A DNA stretch of 40,614 nt from a virus. The stretch lies in UHGV virus genome UHGV-0081829, one strand, 5' to 3'. A program made the translations under genes and the position numbers. The notes beneath the pieces were generated by a model that searched no databases, was not told where the DNA came from, and worked only from the letters and a program-made list of their open reading frames with translations. This document shows positions 477-9,322 of this stretch, in pieces. The first letter of the stretch is position 1; every line of letters starts with the position of its first letter.

Positions 477-773
477 TCAGTCATTACTGATAGCGCCATA
501 GCGTGAGCGGTAATTACGCAGGCGCGGGTCGATATATTCAGGGAATTTGTCTATTGTCGCTTTTCGCAACGGTCTCATTGCTGTTTCGTTTGTTCGGTCC
601 TTCTCATCTTTTAACGCGAGTTGTATATCGCGTCGGTACATCCGTTCTGCTTTTGTTTCTGGTGGCAGAGCAAGAAACGCGTCGAAATTGTTTTTGATAT
701 TTTCCAGCACCTCCGCCTTGGAGCTACCGGAGCAGTTGCGCTGGTCATCCGCACCATACAGAGGCGCTGGCAT
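477..773 (-). CDS. Hypothetical protein
   Basis: 98-aa ORF in the leftward operon; ATG at 773 with AAGG about 9 nt upstream; fills the gap between neighbours. Confidence 0.5.
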
Positions 774-796: not shown

Positions 797-1384
797 TCAG
801 AAAGGAGGGTAATCGTTCTGGCTGTAACCATAATCATCTGCATGATTCTGGCTTACGTTTTTAGAGCGATTGTCTTTATCTTTGAGATTGGCAACCATGT
901 TGGCGATAGTTTCTGGTTGCTTGCCTTCTGCCTTTTCTTTAAGGGTTTGACCTGTTTGTGCAATAAACGGGATGCGTATTTCCATCTGGTAGCTGTCTGC
1001 GCCAGTCTTTTTGTTTGTGGTTAATACTTTCTGGAGCACTAACCCGATTTTCTTTCCATGAAATTCAGGAGCAACAAATTTACTGGCGGAAACCATATGT
1101 TGCGTTAATTGTCCAATCCCGGCACACCCCATCATGGCGTGGACGACATTTGCGCCAAATTTATTTTCCGCTCCATCATTTTTCTGAACACAAACGCTAA
1201 GATATTGGATTTTACGTCCGTCGTCGGATTCGCCAGAAAACTCAATAAATTTGGCTCCTTTTTCTGATTGTTTTAGTTCTGCTTCAGTAATGGTAATGAT
1301 ATGAGCGCCAGTTTCGTTAATAAAACCACCTTGCCCTGCGGTCAGTGCTGCTTCTTCGTTATAAGTAAAAATTACGTTGCTCAT
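797..1384 (-). CDS. Sak4-partner protein, DUF669-like (putative ssDNA-binding/recombination accessory)
   Basis: 195-aa ORF whose start overlaps the stop of the upstream ATPase gene by 4 nt (1381-1384); pairing with a Sak4-type ATPase is typical; family name from memory. Confidence 0.5.
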   Translation of the reverse strand: MSNVIFTYNEEAALTAGQGGFINETGAHIITITEAELKQSEKGAKFIEFSGESDDGRKIQYLSVCVQKNDGAENKFGANVVHAMMGCAGIGQLTQHMVSASKFVAPEFHGKKIGLVLQKVLTTNKKTGADSYQMEIRIPFIAQTGQTLKEKAEGKQPETIANMVANLKDKDNRSKNVSQNHADDYGYSQNDYPPF

Positions 1385-2061
1385 GCGGCGTTTTCCTTAA
1401 TTTGATGAACATTATTGATGCCGTAGTAATCACAAACAGTGGCATCGACGAAAGAGAGATCGTTATCAATCTCATTGGAATCAAACATTCCCATTGGGGA
1501 TTTAACAGTGTCTGCACCGTTGTTTTTCGTGGTGAAAAAGAACTGGTCATCGCGGGTAAGAGTGCGAAGAACTATAGTAAACATGCCTTCGACAGTGATT
1601 TTCTCGTCCAGCATTTTGCCGATAGTTTTCATTTTCACGCGCCCCATAGGGGTTTCTTCGGTGTGCGCAAGAAAATAGACTCTCAGGTCATCAGGTGCAT
1701 CCTGTGCAGCCTTAATCACCTCCCATGCGTGGCGGCCTATCTCAGTAAATTTATCAAACGATTTTTCTTCTGAGCGACGCATAAACTCATTGCTCATCAC
1801 ATACTGGAAGTCATCAACAATAACGATTCTTTTCCCGTATTCGTGAGCACGCTTAATTACGGCAACTATTACATCCCATTTGTCAGTGGTAACTACGGTT
1901 CCTTTTTTTGCTCTGGCATCCCATGCCAGCCAGTCTTTTGATTTAAATGGTAGCGGCTTGCCTATTGGTTTTATAAGTATTGCTTCCTCTGGATTGATAT
2001 TTCTCATGCTGGTTGATTTTCCGGTGCCAGACTCACCGAGTATTAATGTCGCAGTTCCCAT
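1381..2061 (-). CDS. Sak4-like RecA-fold ATPase (AAA family, recombination)
   Basis: N-terminal Walker A GESGTGKST, Walker B-like IVIVDDF, about 226 aa; GAGG 7 nt before the ATG at 2061. Confidence 0.75.
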   Translation of the reverse strand: MGTATLILGESGTGKSTSMRNINPEEAILIKPIGKPLPFKSKDWLAWDARAKKGTVVTTDKWDVIVAVIKRAHEYGKRIVIVDDFQYVMSNEFMRRSEEKSFDKFTEIGRHAWEVIKAAQDAPDDLRVYFLAHTEETPMGRVKMKTIGKMLDEKITVEGMFTIVLRTLTRDDQFFFTTKNNGADTVKSPMGMFDSNEIDNDLSFVDATVCDYYGINNVHQIKENAA

Positions 2062-2987: not shown

Positions 2988-3126
2988 ATATCACCTTAAA
3001 TAGTGGTTTGCGGTAGTAAAGATTGCGCCTGTCTTTTAACCACATCAGGCTCGGTGGTTCCTTCACTTTCCACAGTCAAAGGAAATGGGTAGACTGTTGT
3101 TTCCACAGTCAAAAGAAGGAGTTCAC

Positions 3127-3381
3127 ATGTCAGATGTATCTCTTGTTAAAATCATTGAGGATTTAAACGACAGAGTTTCAAAACTGAGCACTGAAAACCT
3201 CGCACTCCAGCAAGCGATCATTTCGATAGTTTCTGCTATGCCGCCTGAGCAATCATCACATGCAAAAAAGCATCTTGATGAAGTTATTAAGTTTGTTGAG
3301 AAGGAGGGTTCAGCGGCTGCTATTGAGGTGCTGGAAGTTCAGAAACCGATTTATCAAATGCTTTTCGCTCACGTGAAATAG
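3127..3381 (+). CDS. Hypothetical protein encoded antisense to the leftward early operon
   Basis: ATG at 3127 with AAGGAG 5 nt upstream (MSDVSLVK...); preceded by two 14-bp direct repeats; track ORF 3085..3381. Confidence 0.45.
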   Translation: MSDVSLVKIIEDLNDRVSKLSTENLALQQAIISIVSAMPPEQSSHAKKHLDEVIKFVEKEGSAAAIEVLEVQKPIYQMLFAHVK

Positions 3382-3736
3382 TTTCTGCCTGATTAATCAT
3401 TACCTGAGCCTGCTGGCGAATAGCTTCACTGGCAGGCTCTTTTGTTAAGAGTTGTGTGAAACCAGCGATAATGTTGCTGGCTAACATCTCAAACCGTTTT
3501 TTCTGAATATCTCTTGATTCTTCATCAATTGGGGGTTCAATATTGCTTAGTGCCGTTACATATACGTGAATTGCCGCTGACCGGACATCATCAGGAAGAT
3601 GTTCAAGTGTACTGGCTCTTGTTTTTACAAGTTCGATAATATTTGCCTTCTTAATATCTTCAGTTTTTTCATCAATTACTGATATAAAATTTTTTACTGA
3701 TGCTTCTAAAGAGCTTTCTAATTTACTTAAATCCAT
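3320..3736 (-). CDS. Hypothetical protein downstream of N
   Basis: ATG at 3736 (MDLSKLESS...) with GAGGT 5 nt upstream, directly after the N stop; 3' end overlaps the plus-strand gene by 62 nt. Confidence 0.45.
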   Translation of the reverse strand: MDLSKLESSLEASVKNFISVIDEKTEDIKKANIIELVKTRASTLEHLPDDVRSAAIHVYVTALSNIEPPIDEESRDIQKKRFEMLASNIIAGFTQLLTKEPASEAIRQQAQVMINQAETISRERKAFDKSVSELPAPQ

Positions 3737-3738
3737 AA

Positions 3739-4047
3739 TTACCTCGCCGTCAGTTGTTTTGATTTCCGGTAGCCTGCCGCGTAAATGGCTACGTTTGGCA
3801 GGCAAATACTTCCACTGCATTCGTCGGTATTTTGGTTACGAATGTTGCCGAGTGATATTGCTTTTTCAGAAAGGCTTAAACGCTTTCTTGGGGATTCCTG
3901 AACAGGTTCCTCACTGTCTGTGCCGAAGATAGAATCAATGATGTTGCAGATGGCATCACGCTCGATAGCCAGCTTTCTGCGCCGCTCATGACGGCGAGTT
4001 TTGGCATTTCCTGCAAATGTTGATTTTCCGTACACGATTACCGTCAT
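3739..4047 (-). CDS. N: Early antitermination protein N (P22 gene 24 type)
   Basis: Begins MTVIVYGKSTFAGNAKTRRHERRRKLAIERD with an arginine-rich motif, ends ...AAGYRKSKQLTAR, closely matching P22 gp24 as recalled; GAGGAAAA before the ATG at 4047. Confidence 0.8.
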   Translation of the reverse strand: MTVIVYGKSTFAGNAKTRRHERRRKLAIERDAICNIIDSIFGTDSEEPVQESPRKRLSLSEKAISLGNIRNQNTDECSGSICLPNVAIYAAGYRKSKQLTAR

Positions 4048-4166
4048 GATATTTTCCTCATGTGAAATGGCTTTGGTGGTGATGCGCCAGGTGCTGATCT
4101 TCTGGTTGCTGTCGTTGCAGCTGCAATTCACATCACCGCCAAACCCATCTCGTTTGGTATCTGTTT

Positions 4167-4200
4167 GCGCTTTGTCAGCGCCCCATCGAAGTTAAAGAGC
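4167..4200 (-). promoter_or_regulatory. nutL site (boxA GCTCTTTAAC, boxB hairpin GCGCT-GACAA-AGCGC)
   Basis: Minus strand reads GCTCTTTAAC, 9 nt, then GCGCTGACAAAGCGC, upstream of N in the leftward transcript. Confidence 0.6.
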
Positions 4201-4452
4201 CTGCCAATCTGTTCCGTTTGGCTTCCAGCTTCCTGCTGATGGCTAAATAGTACGATGTGTACTTTATTGAGTCAATACAAAATGTTCTAAATGTTGTTAG
4301 TTTTTTATAACATATTGTATTTTATGGATTTGTTTTTTGCAGGGGGAATTGTTTGGTATGTGAGGGATCAGAATTGCACTGTTTAGCAAGTTGTATCTAT
4401 CAATTTTTCAATAAATACAATTGGTTATTGTGTTATTAGGTGTGTGGATCGT

Positions 4453-4483
4453 GAGGAAAAGAAAACCCGGCGCTGAGGCCGGG
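4453..4483 (-). terminator. Intrinsic terminator ending the cI cargo operon
   Basis: Stem CCCGGC/GCCGGG with a 6-nt loop (4466-4483), followed on the minus strand by TTTTCTTTT, 6 nt past the stop at 4489. Confidence 0.7.
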
Positions 4484-4488
4484 TTGTA

Positions 4489-5241
4489 TTATGCTGCAAG
4501 TCTCTTAACCCAAGTCTCTCTTTTGGAGAATGGTAGAACTTGGCTTGATTCATGGAAGAGTAAGGAGAGTTGTTGCATTTGGTCACCAATTGCTTCGCTG
4601 TCTATAACAACAAATCTGTTGTTATACTCCTCACTTGAAGCTTTAAGATCAATTAGTTTCCCAAGCAATGAGTAAGCACTATTCCAGCTTCCTCCGTGTT
4701 TCACGCTTGATGTAAAAACGTATTTAGGTATGTCGGTTTTTATTGTTACAGGGACGGTAATTTGATGTCCACTCAAGCCATATACGTTTTCACGAAGAGA
4801 AAGTGCGTCTCTAAGCTCTGTGTGATATAGATAATCAATAACCATACTTTCAAACTTTTCAGCTTGAACTGGCTGATACCAGTCTAACGACAAAGTTGAT
4901 GCGAGTATACCAGCTCTAATTATGTTCGATGTAATAGCACCGACATCCTTTTCTGTTGCCCAAGCAATGATTTCTCCTCGATCATTGAGCTCTGCGCCTT
5001 CTTTAAGCAGTAATTGTCGTATCTCATCAAGTCGTTTTTTGGTAAGCGAGATCCCTCTTGCCTCCATATTCATTAAGGCATCGCATCTGTCACTAACTAA
5101 ATACCTACCATTGACTTCACGGATAAAGGCACCGACATGCTCTCCATCATCACAGTAAGTGAATGGACTGATAATTCTCAAGGTCTTGCCCATTGGATGG
5201 CATTCGAAACCTAGTTGTGAGATCACTGTTGAGCACATCAT
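4489..5241 (-). CDS. Hypothetical 250-aa protein, third gene of the cI-downstream cargo cassette
   Basis: ATG at 5241 overlaps the upstream stop (ATGATG/TGA at 5236-5241); no family recognised; AT-rich by eye. Confidence 0.5.
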   Translation of the reverse strand: MMCSTVISQLGFECHPMGKTLRIISPFTYCDDGEHVGAFIREVNGRYLVSDRCDALMNMEARGISLTKKRLDEIRQLLLKEGAELNDRGEIIAWATEKDVGAITSNIIRAGILASTLSLDWYQPVQAEKFESMVIDYLYHTELRDALSLRENVYGLSGHQITVPVTIKTDIPKYVFTSSVKHGGSWNSAYSLLGKLIDLKASSEEYNNRFVVIDSEAIGDQMQQLSLLFHESSQVLPFSKRETWVKRLAA

Positions 5242-5795
5242 ATTCCAAACCCCATTTGCCCCGACTCATCTTCAAGTGGTAAAGGTATTCTCCCAGAGTA
5301 AGTTATGTTCAGATGTTTACAGAAGTAATTCCAATACCCTACCAGGTCATCTGGGTTTATGTCATCTTCGATTGGAAACGCTATTCTATCACTATAGTAT
5401 CCAGCTTCTTCATAGTATACATGGTAGTGAGCACCGTAAATGATATCTTGGTACTTCGGATGATCGACCTTGTAACTATTCGTGTGTTTGTCAAAGTGAT
5501 AGGTATCTACCGCGAAAACCCTCTTGTTATGATAGAAAGCAATAATATTTATTTTAGGGTAAGAAATCGGGTCATCAGGTTCTGAATCCTGATCTGGTTT
5601 CCATTTCAGTTCAAACTTTAGCCCTTGTATAGGTATACAATCCTCATCCAAGGGGATGATATGAGCTTGTAGCCACATATCAGAGCGACTTGGTTTCTGT
5701 TTCCATTTAACTCCAGAAAAGTTAACTATTTTTTTACAATAAAGTACTTTATCAACTTCTATTTGGCTTGGCTGATAATCATCTATTTTTGCCAA
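5238..5795 (-). CDS. Hypothetical 185-aa protein, second gene of the cargo cassette (start uncertain: TTG at 5795 or ATG at 5678)
   Basis: Track ORF starts on TTG; first in-frame ATG is at 5678; rich in Tyr/His/Asp/Pro (..YGAHYHVYYEEAGYY..); no family recognised. Confidence 0.45.
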   Translation of the reverse strand: MAKIDDYQPSQIEVDKVLYCKKIVNFSGVKWKQKPSRSDMWLQAHIIPLDEDCIPIQGLKFELKWKPDQDSEPDDPISYPKINIIAFYHNKRVFAVDTYHFDKHTNSYKVDHPKYQDIIYGAHYHVYYEEAGYYSDRIAFPIEDDINPDDLVGYWNYFCKHLNITYSGRIPLPLEDESGQMGFGI

Positions 5796-5854
5796 TGTTT
5801 ACCGCCCTGTAAATTGTAGATAAAAGAGGTTTCATCACCCAAACGTCTCTTCAC

Positions 5855-6196
5855 TCATCCGAAGAAGCAGCAATCCGGGTCAGCACGCACAAGCTCAAGC
5901 GCATCGGTCAGCGAAAGCTCAGTACTGTACTGATGCCATTTCATATCCTTCCGCATCCAATAGATTTTCCATCTATCCAGAGAACGTATGTACTTGATTC
6001 TTGCTGATGGCAGGATGTTTGTTTCACCAGGATTGCCCTGCCACACGGGGCGCTGTTCACCGATATCTATCGTTTGGTCATTGATGCTATAAACAATATC
6101 CAGTTCATTGCGGATATGTTCAGGCGGCCTTATGCTTTCAATGAATTGGTGAACTTCTTTTTTTACTGCTTGATATTCAAGGTCAGTGAACGCCAT
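5855..6196 (-). CDS. Hypothetical 113-aa protein immediately downstream of cI (possibly DUF3024-like, unverified)
   Basis: AAGGAGG 5 nt before the ATG at 6196, only 9 nt after the cI stop; Trp-rich C-terminal half; flanked by a 17-bp direct repeat. Confidence 0.55.
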   Translation of the reverse strand: MAFTDLEYQAVKKEVHQFIESIRPPEHIRNELDIVYSINDQTIDIGEQRPVWQGNPGETNILPSARIKYIRSLDRWKIYWMRKDMKWHQYSTELSLTDALELVRADPDCCFFG

Positions 6197-6205
6197 CTAT
6201 CCTCC

Positions 6206-6865
6206 TTACCCAAACGTCTCTTCAGGCCATTGACTGGCGATAACCTTGCCTACAATGTTGCAGTTCTCATTGCATGGGATGATTGGAAACTGCGGGTTAA
6301 GTGGTTGCAAAAACACTTGCCCACTATCTTTGATCAGTTTTTTGAATGTGAATTCATCGCCACCAAGTCTAGCGATACAGAAATCACCAGGATCAACAGG
6401 TTGTTCAGGGTCAACCAAGATTAACATTCCATCAGGAAAACTTGGTTTCAATCCTGCCGGAGCTGTCATTGAGTTGCCTTCAACCTCAAGCCAGAATGCA
6501 GAATCACTGGCTTTTTTGGTTGTGCTTACCCATCTCTCCGCATCACCTTTGGTAAAGGTTCTAAGCTCAGGCGAGAACATCCCGGCCTGAACATGAGAAA
6601 AAACAGGGTACTCATATTGTTTTTTAACGGGGGCAGATGAGTATTCGCCAACAGGTGAAAATGTACCGTCGTGGTTGAACGAGACGTTATCAATACCAAG
6701 GTATTTAAACACCATACCAATCTCGTCAAGAGATGGATGACGAGATCCGCGCAACCAGTGACCAATTCCACCCTGCGTCATACCAAGCTCTTCAGCTAAC
6801 TTCTCTTGAGTTATGCCGAGTTCTTTCATTCTGGATCTAGCCAGTTCATACCATTTCATTTTCAT
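6206..6865 (-). CDS. cI: CI-type repressor (XRE HTH + S24 LexA-like peptidase domain)
   Basis: [26 protein letters not shown]; C-terminal GNSM and FKKL Ser/Lys dyad context; C-terminal domain resembles P22 C2; start at 6865 or 6859 (MKMKWYEL, second ATG has better AAGGA spacing). Confidence 0.85.
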
Positions 6866-6976
6866 ATCCTTATTATTACGCTCTGTACTAAAATCATCCA
6901 TGCACAAGATGTATTTTTTGTTTGCATTCCAAAAGTACATATCGTATTATTGTTTCATGGTTACTATGGAGGGCAT
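6866..6976. promoter_or_regulatory. OR/pR/pRM divergent control region between cI and cro
   Basis: 110-bp AT-rich spacer between divergent genes; GTACT (6885-6889) and AGTAC (6935-6939) half-site-like motifs; candidate pR at 6922-6950. Confidence 0.5.
6922..6950 (+). promoter_or_regulatory. Candidate pR promoter (-35 TTGCAT, 17-bp spacer, -10 TATTAT)
   Basis: TTGCAT at 6922-6927 and TATTAT at 6945-6950, about 27 nt upstream of the cro ATG; the AGTAC motif lies in the spacer. Confidence 0.45.
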
Positions 6977-7192
6977 ATGAGCAACCTACGAAAATATCGA
7001 GAGTCACTGAATATCTCTCAAACAACACTTGCTAAGGCGGTTGGATGCACACAGGGAGCTATCGGACATTGGGAATCTGGTCGTCGCTTCCCAGACCTTA
7101 AAACATGCCGTGCTCTTGTTGCGTGCCTAAACAAGTTAGGCGCAAAAGTCAGTCTTGATGACGTGTTTCCACCGGAACACAAAGCCGCTTAA
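6977..7192 (+). CDS. cro: Cro-like HTH repressor
   Basis: ATG at 6977 with GGAGGG upstream; 71 aa; HTH ISQTTLAKAVGCTQGAIGHWESG; divergent from cI. Confidence 0.7.
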   Translation: MSNLRKYRESLNISQTTLAKAVGCTQGAIGHWESGRRFPDLKTCRALVACLNKLGAKVSLDDVFPPEHKAA

Positions 7193-7202
7193 TAAGCGGA
7201 TC

Positions 7203-7237
7203 CGCTCTTTATCAATCTGCACCGCCGACAACGCGGT
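7203..7237 (+). promoter_or_regulatory. nutR site (boxA CGCTCTTTA, boxB ACCGC-CGACAAC-GCGGT)
   Basis: CGCTCTTTA at 7203-7211 and a GACAA-loop hairpin at 7221-7237 just after the cro stop; shares motifs with nutL. Confidence 0.45.
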
Positions 7238-7301
7238 AACTAATTAAGCACTCATCGAAAGATGAGTATTAGTGATTATTTACCTATGGAAATAGTAAGA
7301 A

Positions 7302-7601
7302 ATGGAACAAACAAGTTACAGCAAACTATCACAGCGTGACGTTGATCGCGCAGAAACAGATTTACTCATCAACCTGTCAACGCTTACCCAGCGCGGTCTG
7401 GCAAAGATGATTGGCTGTCATGAATCAAAGATAAGCAGAACGGACTGGAGATTTATTGCTTCGGTCTTGTGTGCTTTTGGAATGGCATCAGACATTAGCC
7501 CGATTAGCAGGGCTTTTAAGTATGCGCTTGATGGACTCACCAATAAAAAACGCCCGGTGTGCAAGACCGAGCGTTCTGAACAAATCCAGATGGATTTTTA
7601 A
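7302..7601 (+). CDS. cII: CII transcriptional activator
   Basis: 99 aa; C-terminus ...LTNKKRPVCKTERSEQIQMDF matches lambda CII (...LTNKKRPAATERSEQIQMEF) as recalled. Confidence 0.85.
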   Translation: MEQTSYSKLSQRDVDRAETDLLINLSTLTQRGLAKMIGCHESKISRTDWRFIASVLCAFGMASDISPISRAFKYALDGLTNKKRPVCKTERSEQIQMDF

Positions 7602-7622
7602 CTGCTTTCTATGGAGTTAATT

Positions 7623-8423
7623 ATGGCAAAAAAACCTACACCAGACCAGGTAAAAAAGATTCGTTCCGGCATTACCAAGAAAATACGGTTTGAGGTTTTC
7701 AAGCGCGATGGCTTCAAATGCCAGTACTGTGGGAGTTCTGCGCCAGACGTCATCCTTCATGTCGACCATATCAACCCAGTTAGCAAGGGTGGCGATAACG
7801 ACATGATGAACCTTATTACTTCTTGCGATAGTTGTAATGGCGGGAAAAGCGACAAACTGCTCAGCGATAACTCAATAATGGAAAAGCAAAGGCAGCAACT
7901 CCAGGAACTTAATACCAAGCGAGAGCAACTGGAGATGATGATCAAGTGGCGAGATGGTCTTAAGAGCCTGAAAGACGATGTTGTTGATATTGTCGCTACC
8001 AAAATTGACGACTGCATTGCACCATTTACTGTTAATGACAATGGGCGAAAATCTATCAAGAGATGGCTTCGAATATATAAGCTTGAAGAAATCCTCGATG
8101 CGATTGAGATTGCCGCAGACAAAAAACTCACCCAAGAAATAACCCATGAGCTTACTGGTGAATTCTTTGAGTACATCCCTCGCATAGCAGCGACAAAAAG
8201 AAAACCGCCAAAAGAACAAAGGATTCTATACATCAGAGGAATTCTTAAAAACCGCATATATATCAATCAAAACCATGTAATGAGTTATCTCAAGGCATGG
8301 CTTTCATACGACTTAGATCTCGATGAACTTACTGAGTTTGCGAAAACAGTACCTAACTGGACAACGTTCAAGGAGTGGGTATCTGAACGCATTCGTGAAG
8401 CTCAGGAAGAACTCCCGTACTAA
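7623..8423 (+). CDS. HNH endonuclease domain protein
   Basis: HNH signature CQYCG...HVDHINPVSKGGDNDMMNLITSCDSCN in the N-terminal third; ATG at 7623 with GGAG 6 nt upstream; track ORF 7611..8423. Confidence 0.65.
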   Translation: MAKKPTPDQVKKIRSGITKKIRFEVFKRDGFKCQYCGSSAPDVILHVDHINPVSKGGDNDMMNLITSCDSCNGGKSDKLLSDNSIMEKQRQQLQELNTKREQLEMMIKWRDGLKSLKDDVVDIVATKIDDCIAPFTVNDNGRKSIKRWLRIYKLEEILDAIEIAADKKLTQEITHELTGEFFEYIPRIAATKRKPPKEQRILYIRGILKNRIYINQNHVMSYLKAWLSYDLDLDELTEFAKTVPNWTTFKEWVSERIREAQEELPY

Positions 8424-8434
8424 AGGTGGACAAA

Positions 8435-9322
8435 ATGGCACGTTCAAGAAATATCAAACCAGGCTTTTTCACCAATGATGAATTAGCTGAGTGTTCTCCA
8501 TATGCCCGTCTCCTTTTTGCCGGGTTATGGACTATTGCTGACAAAGAAGGGCGGTTGGATGATCGCCCAAAGAAAATTAAAGCAATGGTACTGCCTTTCG
8601 ATGATGTGGACTGCAATGATCTGCTTCAGCAGCTTCATAGTCACAAATTCATCAACCGATATCAGGTAAATGGCGGCTCATATATCCAAATCAATAACTG
8701 GAAAAAGCACCAGAACCCTCACTGCAAAGAAGCAGCCAGTGAGATACCAGAACCAGTAGAGAACAATAACAGCACCATGCAAGTACAGTGCAAGGACGAT
8801 AAAGAGGAAGAGAAGGAGGATGCCGAATCACTACAAGTCATTGAAAACAATGGAGTACCAGAAAAGCACCATGCAAGTACAGTGCAAGAACCAGTAGAGA
8901 ACAGTTTAAATCCTGCTGATTCCCTTAACCTGATTCCTGATTCCCTTAACCTGATTCCTGATTCCCTTTCTAACACCCAAGCCGCTGACGCGACTTGTGA
9001 AGGGGGTGGGGCTGATGTCCATAAAATTTCAAGTCGCTATGCATTCGAAGGAAATATCGTTCGGTTAAACCACAAGGACTACGAAGCATGGAAGCGCCTG
9101 TATCCGAATATTGACCTGAATTACGAACTGGAAAGGCTGGATATCGAATTTAGCCATGAGAAGCCAAAGAACTGGTTTATCACTGCCAGCCAGAAACTCA
9201 GCTACCAGAACAAGCAGGCGTTATCCAGACCGGTACGCAAGGTTGCTAATGGACTTAAGGCTGAAAACTTTGCCACCAAAGATTACGGACAAACTGAAAT
9301 GCCTTCATGGGCGCAGGAGTGA
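8435..9322 (+). CDS. Replication initiator / replisome organizer (O-like), carries the iterons
   Basis: ATG at 8435 (MARSRNIKPGFF...) with GGTGG 5 nt upstream; sits in the lambda O position; internal direct repeats. Confidence 0.7.
   Translation: MARSRNIKPGFFTNDELAECSPYARLLFAGLWTIADKEGRLDDRPKKIKAMVLPFDDVDCNDLLQQLHSHKFINRYQVNGGSYIQINNWKKHQNPHCKEAASEIPEPVENNNSTMQVQCKDDKEEEKEDAESLQVIENNGVPEKHHASTVQEPVENSLNPADSLNLIPDSLNLIPDSLSNTQAADATCEGGGADVHKISSRYAFEGNIVRLNHKDYEAWKRLYPNIDLNYELERLDIEFSHEKPKNWFITASQKLSYQNKQALSRPVRKVANGLKAENFATKDYGQTEMPSWAQE
8750..8970 (+). repeat. Iteron-like direct repeats (candidate replication origin) inside the replication gene
   Basis: 24-bp repeat AGCACCATGCAAGTACAGTGCAAG at 8771-8794 and 8865-8888; 16-bp GAACCAGTAGAGAACA at 8750-8765 and 8888-8903; TGATTCC(CTTAACC) repeated five times at 8917-8970. 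Confidence 0.6.

Follow-up and report, generated by a model that had tools for sequence, protein, structure and literature searches.

Organization of the repressor operon

The window analyzed here, by which we mean the whole 40,614-base stretch of the virus genome UHGV-0081829, carries a repressor operon on its minus strand, with HTH cro-like and cII genes to its right (Table 1). The repressor has the features of a LexA-like lambdoid cI, with an N-terminal HTH, a C-terminal S24 domain, and a divergent cro-like gene, and its true start probably lies downstream of the ATG of the longest ORF. The genes around the junction described below are cI, cro, cII, HNH, and N, with no integron integrase among these. 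Phage recombination functions are also present in the window, namely a homologue of Abc2 and an AAA_24 protein that is Sak4-like.

Directly 3' of cI, on the same strand and before the operon terminator, lies a gene for a 113-aa DUF3024 protein, in the position characteristic of accessory genes of the PRM operon. The spacer that separates it from the cI stop belongs to the DUF3024 cassette in every E. coli context. The two genes that follow, encoding the 185-aa protein and a DUF1828 protein, weakly match the two-gene candidate PDC-M24, and the operon ends at a terminator-like hairpin within a stretch that is homologous to the region of phage 933W bearing the annotated terminator tM. On the coding strand from 6940 to 4485, no terminator-like site was detected before this hairpin, and promoter-like matches were at the level of shuffled sequence (7 found versus 7.2 expected). 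The cassette itself contains an RBS and no promoter-like or terminator-like site above background. In the 933W annotation, the same gene is located between cI and stk, upstream of a tM labelled "for pM transcript". Based on this layout, the cargo slot, which extends from the cI stop to the terminator, is probably transcribed together with cI from the maintenance promoter.

The 113-aa protein matches PF11225 over residues 4-113 (E = 2.4e-31; 108.7 bits versus a cut-off of 24.9) and the PADLOC candidate PDC-S43 over residues 1-113 (E = 7.2e-42). Its AlphaFold model, built with 39 homologues, has a pLDDT of 89.5 and consists of a helix, a five-stranded sheet, and a second helix. A Foldseek search with this model returned no informative structural neighbour (E of 0.058 or worse). 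Our literature search retrieved no paper mentioning DUF3024 and one that lists PDC-S43 in a genome inventory. By its PADLOC label, the gene is a candidate for anti-phage defence.

Table 1 Features of the repressor operon in the window and stretches of the window aligned to its relatives
Feature or comparison	Position	Strand	Basis, identity, or remark
Terminator-like hairpin and T-run	4464..4485	-	Ends cI operon; left edge of variable cargo slot
250-aa DUF1828 gene	4489..5241	-	PDC-M24B-like; 4-nt overlap with 185-aa gene
185-aa gene	5238..5795	-	phrog_2017; weak DUF6978 / PDC-M24A match; first of ev207-like cargo pair
Left repeat copy (5837-5853) with TGA (5834-5836)	5834..5853	-	Non-coding cI 3'-end fossil; same as real cI end and flank of ev207
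113-aa DUF3024 gene	5855..6196	-	PF11225, phrog_3467, PADLOC candidate PDC-S43; stop TGA 5855-5857
Mobile unit by homology (cassette and both tail copies)	5833..6232	-	98.0-98.3% to 933W / O157:H7 EC4115
Spacer GGAGGATAG, 9 nt, Shine-Dalgarno	6197..6205	-	Between cI stop and DUF3024 ATG
Right repeat copy, upstream in gene orientation	6208..6224	-	cI 3' coding end P-E-E-T-F-G; stop TAA 6206-6208
cI repressor, HTH_3 and Peptidase_S24	6206..6940	-	Pfam HTH_3 6.5e-11, Peptidase_S24 6.2e-28
HTH cro-like gene	6977-7192		
cII	7302-7601		
ev207 versus window, left of repeat	4192-5853		95.8%
ev207 versus window, right of repeat	6208-7597		87.7%
E. coli PEC41 prophage versus window, closest cI allele	6208-7597		98.5%
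E. coli PEC41 prophage versus window, N region	3027-4485		96.6%

A repeated repressor gene end brackets the DUF3024 gene

The DUF3024 gene lies between the two copies of a perfect 17-bp direct repeat, ACCCAAACGTCTCTTCA, at 5837-5853 and 6208-6224. An earlier, sequence-only reading had pointed out this pair, and our search agrees with it: there is no further copy in the window, and the same two sites remain the only ones when up to two mismatches are tolerated. The chance expectation for the 17-mer is 0.01 matches, and two copies occurred in none of 100 shuffles. With mismatches allowed, the repeat extends to 20 of 22 identical positions (5832-5853 versus 6203-6224, at a spacing of 371). Apart from this pair, perfect direct repeats at least 17 nt long occur in the window only as iteron-like repeats at 8749-8957.

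The placement of the two copies relative to the minus-strand reading frames is also as that reading described it. The right copy is the 3' end of cI, encoding EETFG and followed by TAA (..CCT GAA GAG ACG TTT GGG TAA; protein end ..WPEETFG), and the left copy begins 1 nt past the stop of the DUF3024 gene, with an in-frame TGA coming after it. Between the copies lie 354 bp, which contain nothing but the RBS and the DUF3024 ORF, with no transposase, recombinase, or terminal-inverted-repeat element. The GC content is 0.453 for the DUF3024 gene, 0.431 for cI, 0.375 for the 185-aa gene, and 0.456 for the whole window.

Empty sites and recurrence of the arrangement

If one copy of the repeat were deleted along with the intervening DNA, cI would be expected to end ..EETFG-TGA directly upstream of the 185-aa gene, as the sequence-only reading had predicted. 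This product occurs naturally. A megablast search of positions 5100-6950 against phage records returned six records, representing four phages without the 113-aa gene (ev207, ev017, PhiR57_1, and PhiR63_2), and their matches are 372 bp shorter than the query. All four are exact single-copy sites. Their alignment reads ..GGTTTCATC-ACCCAAACGTCTCTTC-AGGCCATTGG.., the lone copy is the real cI end with a TGA stop, and this stop is followed by the same flank, TGAAACCTC.., and then by the same 185-aa and DUF1828 genes. The difference between ev207 and the window is exactly one repeat copy plus 354 bp. Gain of the cassette and its loss by recombination between the copies would leave the same sequences, and the direction is therefore indistinguishable for individual empty-site genomes.

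The occupied arrangement (cI-DUF3024-tail-185aa-DUF1828) was recovered, by way of the exact 185-aa protein, from three independent assemblies (L176, L175, and L178), and because of this recurrence the arrangement in the window, which corresponds to the complete ENA metagenome contig ERZ1742690 NODE_319, is real. L176 is 100% identical to the window over 5,558 nt. For L175, which has a lambda-immunity-type N-terminal domain and Cro, the identity leftwards of 6616 is 98.3%, and the TGA stop of its repressor lengthens the perfect repeat to 19 nt. A 29-mer spanning the left junction of the window had no match in IMG/VR or the JGI metagenomes.

Distribution of the cassette and its tail copies

Homologues of the region are present in 481 of 5426 complete E. 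coli genomes (~9%), and most of these matches start exactly at position 5833; the whole arrangement of the window was found in none of the 481. Matching genomes include O157:H7 Stx2 prophages, in which the cassette lies between cI and the Stk abortive-infection kinase. In 933W and EC4115, the match is confined to 5833-6232, and the flanks on both sides are unrelated to the window, one of them carrying a different repressor and the other a 153-aa gene and the Stk kinase. In phages of the 933W type, both tail copies are non-coding fossils behind this different repressor. The upstream fossil, 27 nt long, is non-coding because the 933W-type cI stops further upstream.

The association of the gene with repressor tails extends to viral metagenomes. 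Among 64 IMG/VR loci with a close DUF3024 gene, a recognisable copy of the cI tail is present on both sides in 63, and the remaining locus is cut off by a contig end. There are 7,315 index blocks with a record of the exact 113-aa protein. All ten of the contexts that were sampled from these have a tail copy on both sides, and the DUF3024 gene is always the first after the repressor. At least five repressor types precede the gene in such contexts, and at least six different cargos follow it. A scan of species-representative genomes for DUF3024 gave only two matches, both in distant MAGs. Judging from these comparisons, the duplication that formed the repeat is older than the event that produced the window, and it travels with the cassette through hundreds of prophages.

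Stacked fossils of repressor genes

In the 933W-type order, the cI stop is followed by CTTCATCGTCACATAGCTGGTAA, then by CCAGTGGCCTGAAGAGACGTTTGGGTAA, and then by the RBS. The second of these elements is the lambda-type tail relic. The first is a relic that matches the coding end (..FWSSHSW-TAA) of another repressor type, represented by locus L080, where this end lies directly before the lambda-type relic. The match of CTTCATCGTCACATAGCTGGTAA to the end of another repressor suggests that successive repressor replacements each left the previous tail behind. The FWS-type fossil was also found after RacR-like repressors in seven IMG/VR phages without DUF3024, and at locus L097 it is followed by the lambda-type relic and then by an unrelated gene. 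An origin of GGTCGCAGAGATGCGGCC, located past the common relic, by decay of an FWS-type repressor tail was considered and rejected, with hand alignment giving only ~60% identity. GGTCGCAGAGATGCGGCC folds as a hairpin (z = -2.4), with a T-run in Stx1-type phages only.

Two more distant relatives of the DUF3024 gene are bracketed as well. In Kluyvera sichuanensis, the gene is 75% identical to that of the window and is flanked by a 19/21 repeat of the FWS-type fossil. Both of these copies are non-coding, the repressor stopping earlier, and the second starts at nucleotide 0 after the DUF3024 stop. Relatives of this locus were detected neither in the E. coli genomes nor, by exact pattern, in IMG/VR. 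The bracket may be an independent duplication of the same kind. In Erwinia aphidicola, where the protein is 59% identical in amino acids, the 933W synteny (the 153-aa gene and the Stk kinase) is kept and both lambda-type relics are recognisable, the downstream one at 20 of 23 positions. Conservation of this relic beyond that of the gene fits refreshing by crossover and would also fit selection on the relic.

Mosaic joints in the window

The nearest relative of the window switches exactly at short identity patches that are common to the putative parents, as is characteristic of short-homology mosaic joints. The left joint falls within 15 nt (5839-5853), where the sequence of the window matches that of ev207 as far as 5853 and that of EC4115 from 5839 on. 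The right joint falls within 18 nt (6212-6229), where the match to EC4115 continues as far as 6229 and the match to the E. coli PEC41 prophage begins at 6212. The final glycine and TAA stop of cI are of the cassette type (TAA and ..FG in 933W/EC4115), and PEC41 ends in ..FW-TGA. The relic in the closest cassettes reads TGAAGAGACGTTTGGATGATGGATGG... Between its two stretches matching the window (Table 1), PEC41 carries one unrelated 126-aa gene as cargo. By these alignments, the window is a mosaic of three parents, with cI and the region rightward of it resembling PEC41, the cassette resembling 933W/EC4115, and the pair of 185-aa and DUF1828 genes resembling ev207; we infer these parents from extant relatives at 96-98.5% identity. 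Because both inner joints map to identity patches inside the repeat copies, the left copy is most likely a genuine ev207-like cI terminus that was captured by a short-homology crossover with the trailing relic of a cassette. Such an origin would explain the perfect copy, the ev207 flank, and the fact that the exact ev207 arrangement is regained once one copy is removed.

A comparable pair is formed by Stx2a phages and ev099. In the Stx2a phages L074 (Stx2_EH0505), L034, and L082, the downstream copy is perfect, and TAGGAAGTAAG.. and a gene with a NYN domain come after it; in ev099 / E212 the flank TAGGAAGTAAG.. comes directly after the real cI stop. The downstream copy of L074 is exactly the cI tail of ev099, and its own upstream relic differs from this at two positions, which rules out a fresh duplication of the upstream relic as the source of the downstream copy. 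Of all loci examined, only those in the class of the window and in the Stx2a class have a perfect downstream copy, and these same two classes are the only ones in which divergence starts immediately past the TGA of the relic. On this sequence evidence, the Stx2a/ev099 pair represents an independent second case of the same type of joint. For the common cassette class, a synthetic query joining a lambda-type cI end to the TGGATGGTCGCAG.. context retrieved no phage that covers the joint.

The sequence-only reading had attributed the repeat to a cassette insertion or a module exchange at the end of cI. Module exchange fits the steps in identity at the mosaic joints. Under fresh insertion, the 354-bp cassette would have entered the cI gene of an ev207-like phage, 17 nt short of its end, and the repeat would be a target-site duplication, made by a transposition-like staggered cut or by microhomology-mediated repair. 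The exact difference of one repeat copy plus 354 bp between the window and ev207 is what such an event would leave, the repeat is perfect, and the 19/21 bracket of a different repressor tail in Kluyvera hints that this geometry is recurrent. However, the same cassette with both tails is found at 98% identity in hundreds of prophages with other flanks, as an old duplication rather than a new one. Identity to ev207 is 95.8% to the left of the repeat and only 87.7% to its right, indicating that the two sides have different histories, and the cassette codes only for the 113-aa DUF3024 protein and for no transposase. Repeats of 17-21 bp are also longer than usual target-site duplications. We consider this part of the earlier proposal quite improbable.

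Decay of the downstream relic

The downstream copy differs from the repeat at zero, one, or two positions in the main group of IMG/VR loci and at six to seven in the Stx1-type group (11/17 identical), and it is barely recognisable at loci L067-69. Stx1/Stx2-II/Nil2-type phages match the window from 5830 rightwards only. In phages of the Stx1/Nil2 type, DUF3024 is a fragmented pseudogene, followed by a decayed tail copy, TCCTAAATCTCTTTTC, and then by a hairpin with a T-run. At 97.7-98.5% coding-sequence identity to the window, cassettes already carry several different substitutions in the relic.

This pattern bears on the possibility that the 17-mer is a selected cis-acting signal for RNA processing, translational coupling, or protein binding, placed at the end of cI and again before the cargo. 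Such a signal would account for the presence of the relic after almost every DUF3024 cassette and for its conservation in Erwinia (20/23) although the protein there is only 59% identical. Selection is difficult to reconcile with the decay of the relic, which retains 11/17 positions in Stx1-type phages and has decayed beyond that in L067-69, or with the varied substitutions among near-identical cassettes. In addition, the intergenic RNA containing the left copy folds no better than its shuffles (z = +0.70), an Rfam search gave no match, the cargo genes at empty sites have the 17-mer only as the end of cI, and its distance to the start of the cargo varies between cargos. A functional element is thus very improbable. 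The earlier preference for a recombination scar over a shared regulatory element agrees with a left copy that decays along with the pseudogene and has neither RNA structure nor an Rfam match.

A model for the origin of the repeat

Taken together, we think it likely that the repeat was left as a scar by recombination where the repressor gene meets the variable cargo slot of a lambdoid prophage, through crossovers in copies of the repressor tail. The cassette itself is promoterless, comprising the RBS GGAGGATAG, the DUF3024 ORF, its stop, and one further nucleotide. Long ago, it would have gained, on its downstream side, a duplicate of the terminal ~20 nt of a lambda-type cI gene, the simplest guess being an offset illegitimate recombination between two phages whose repressor ends were similar. 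The resulting tail-DUF3024-tail unit now circulates among enterobacterial lambdoid phages. Many cI genes have a real 3' end that the trailing relic matches, so that a short-homology crossover joining the relic to a real cI tail could, on rare occasions, put the cassette before the cargo of another phage, and crossovers within the upstream copy could swap the repressor. These may have been single crossovers in the tail copies of collinear phage genomes, during co-infection or during infection of a lysogen. The direct repeats that flank the cassette lead to the further prediction of its occasional precise loss.

Minimal efficient pairing segments of 31-34 bp for RecA and 23-27 bp for Red-beta have been reported (PMC3945230). 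The identity patches of 15 and 18 nt are shorter than these lengths, which would mean that the crossovers are rare or that they proceeded by another pathway or by relaxed phage recombinases. The repeat, the empty sites, the mosaic boundaries, and the spread and decay of the relics are seen directly in the sequences, and from these we infer in which direction and order the events took place and by what mechanism and enzymes the crossovers came about.

An extension of the model, which we regard as unlikely, is that the tail copies constitute a self-propagating "homology handle" through which the promoterless DUF3024 cassette would be mobile into the repressor operon of any phage sharing the tail. 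Hints of such a handle are the position of DUF3024 as nearly always the first gene after the repressor in immunity-region contexts, the 19/21 bracket in Kluyvera, and the conservation of the relic in Erwinia.

A more elaborate alternative is a dedicated cassette system, in which repressor tails would be att-like and a circle of one tail plus DUF3024 would excise and re-integrate at any repressor tail in the manner of an integron. The cassette has the look of such an element, being a promoterless single ORF that is always first after the repressor, has direct repeats on both sides, and occurs in many combinations of repressor and cargo, with a second tail type bracketing it in Kluyvera. However, no recombinase travels with it, the tails have no inverted-repeat or hairpin character, and the relics decay freely. 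Single crossovers between collinear phage genomes account for all observed mosaics with no need for a circle, and a dedicated system is in our view highly improbable. That the repeat arose by chance and has no historical meaning, for which only its shortness speaks, has next to no probability given its absence from all 100 shuffles, the exact empty sites, and the same bracket in dozens of independent loci.

Comparison with known systems

The PRM transcript is known to carry accessory or exclusion genes (PMC3564112). By analogy of position, the DUF3024 gene may be grouped with the repressor-transcript accessory genes rexAB of lambda, stk of 933W, and hex of 434, which it resembles in its location, in its strand, and in lying before the operon terminator. 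As a cassette that can be separated and exchanged, it should be of use for the annotation of immunity regions and for the design of tests of DUF3024 as a defence candidate.

A moron is an additional gene that separates two genes lying side by side in related phages, a concept that comes from comparisons of HK97 and HK022, and classical morons carry their own promoter and terminator. The DUF3024 gene is like a moron in that it is precisely absent from the collinear ev207 and three other phages and is located in a region probably expressed from the prophage. It differs in having only an RBS and no promoter or terminator of its own, and would instead ride on the repressor operon. A further difference is the bracket formed by a duplicated gene end, which allows the joints to be mapped.

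Integron cassettes and genes between transposon duplications share with the DUF3024 gene the arrangement of a promoterless ORF between direct repeats, downstream of a resident promoter. In contrast to these, no integrase or transposase is associated with it, there is no attC-like structure here, the repeat is the end of a gene, and the relics decay.

The modular evolution of lambdoid phages and relaxed homologous recombination have been addressed by De Paepe et al. 2014 (PMC3945230). As in Botstein's modular theory, the joints in the window are located at a gene boundary, in short identity patches between otherwise diverged genomes. What differs here is that the homology patch would be a duplicated, partly non-coding fossil of a repressor 3' end that travels with the cassette. 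No description of this specific scar and of the stacked fossils was found in the literature searched. The scar is nevertheless of a known and ordinary kind, a mosaic joint together with an accessory gene that lacks a promoter of its own and sits in the repressor operon, and it leaves current views of phage mosaicism unchanged. It is unusually well documented, and it provides an example at base resolution of how lambdoid prophages shuffle lysogeny-expressed genes, with the last ~20 nt of the repressor gene serving as the joint.

Fossil repressor ends around the DUF3024 gene

In 933W-type prophages, non-coding remnants of two repressor genes are stacked upstream of DUF3024, the gene that directly follows cI in the window. 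The cI stop codon is followed by the 3'-end relic of another repressor, CTTCATCGTCACATAGCTGGTAA, which matches the point where the coding sequence of the L080-type repressor ends, ..FWSSHSW-TAA (FWS-type), then by a 27-nt lambda-type cI-tail relic, and then by the ribosome-binding site of DUF3024. The FWS-type fossil also occurs without DUF3024, behind the RacR-like repressors of several IMG/VR phages; in one of these (L097), a lambda-type tail relic comes after it, and then a gene that is unrelated. In Kluyvera sichuanensis, the FWS-type fossil lies on both sides of DUF3024 as a 19/21 direct repeat that is coding in neither copy, the second copy beginning at nucleotide 0 past the DUF3024 stop. 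This bracket could have arisen through a duplication of its own or through a mechanism shared with the other cases.

The DUF3024 homologue of the Stx1 converting phage (L002) is a pseudogene: it carries two 1-nt indels, none of its ORFs exceeds 44 aa, and the record leaves it unannotated. Pseudogenes of DUF3024 are also present in Nil2, YYZ-2008, 1717, 2851, and the PA-series phages. Downstream of the L002 pseudogene, the tail relic is decayed, and a hairpin bearing a T-run comes after it. A conserved hairpin, GGTCGCAGAGATGCGGCC in L003, lies immediately downstream of the trailing relic (the tail copy downstream of DUF3024) in the majority of cassette classes, and Erwinia has it too (RNA fold z = -2.4). 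Its T-run is confined to Stx1-type phages. This structure may be the remnant of a terminator that formerly stood behind cI.

Features of the window and of the loci compared with it
Feature	Position	Location or remark
Stacked fossils	L003 3865-3927; L073 2098-2157; L079/L084 2941-3000	933W-type prophages
FWS-type fossil after RacR-like repressors	L097 1885-1945; L103, L104, L106, L126, L141, L143 near 1891	IMG/VR phages
DUF3024 bracket, direct repeat	L087 2450-2470 and 2843-2863	K. sichuanensis CP162271
DUF3024 pseudogene	L002 3034-3375	Stx1 converting phage AP005153
Hairpin	L003 3470-3500 and equivalents	directly behind trailing relic
185-aa gene and 250-aa DUF1828 gene	window 4489-5795	4-nt overlap at 5238-5241
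HNH endonuclease gene, 270 aa	window 7611-8423	between cII and replication genes
Perfect direct repeats	window 8749-8957	inside 298-aa gene after HNH gene
Abc2 (anti-RecBCD protein 2)	window 477-773	
AAA_24 (Sak4-like) protein	window 1381-2061	

Other genes of the window

The longest cI ORF (6206-6940) encodes 244 aa, whereas homologues are called at 217 to 233 aa and begin near MKWYELARS, and its N-terminus is probably over-extended. The 185-aa and DUF1828 proteins strongly match phrog_2017 and phrog_1960 and weakly match the protein pair of PDC-M24, a candidate system in PADLOC (E values of 5e-4 and 3e-10). Their genes probably form a two-gene unit, of unassigned function, on the cI operon.

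The HNH endonuclease gene is shared with L175 and L176. The repeats in the gene after it, a 17-mer present twice at a spacing of 138 nt and a 21-mer in tandem, look like origin iterons, since their position corresponds to the replication initiator.

The recombination module (477-2061) is P22-like rather than lambda Red. The E. coli prophage PEC41, otherwise similar to the window, carries Bet and Gam in place of Abc2 and the AAA_24 (Sak4-like) protein.
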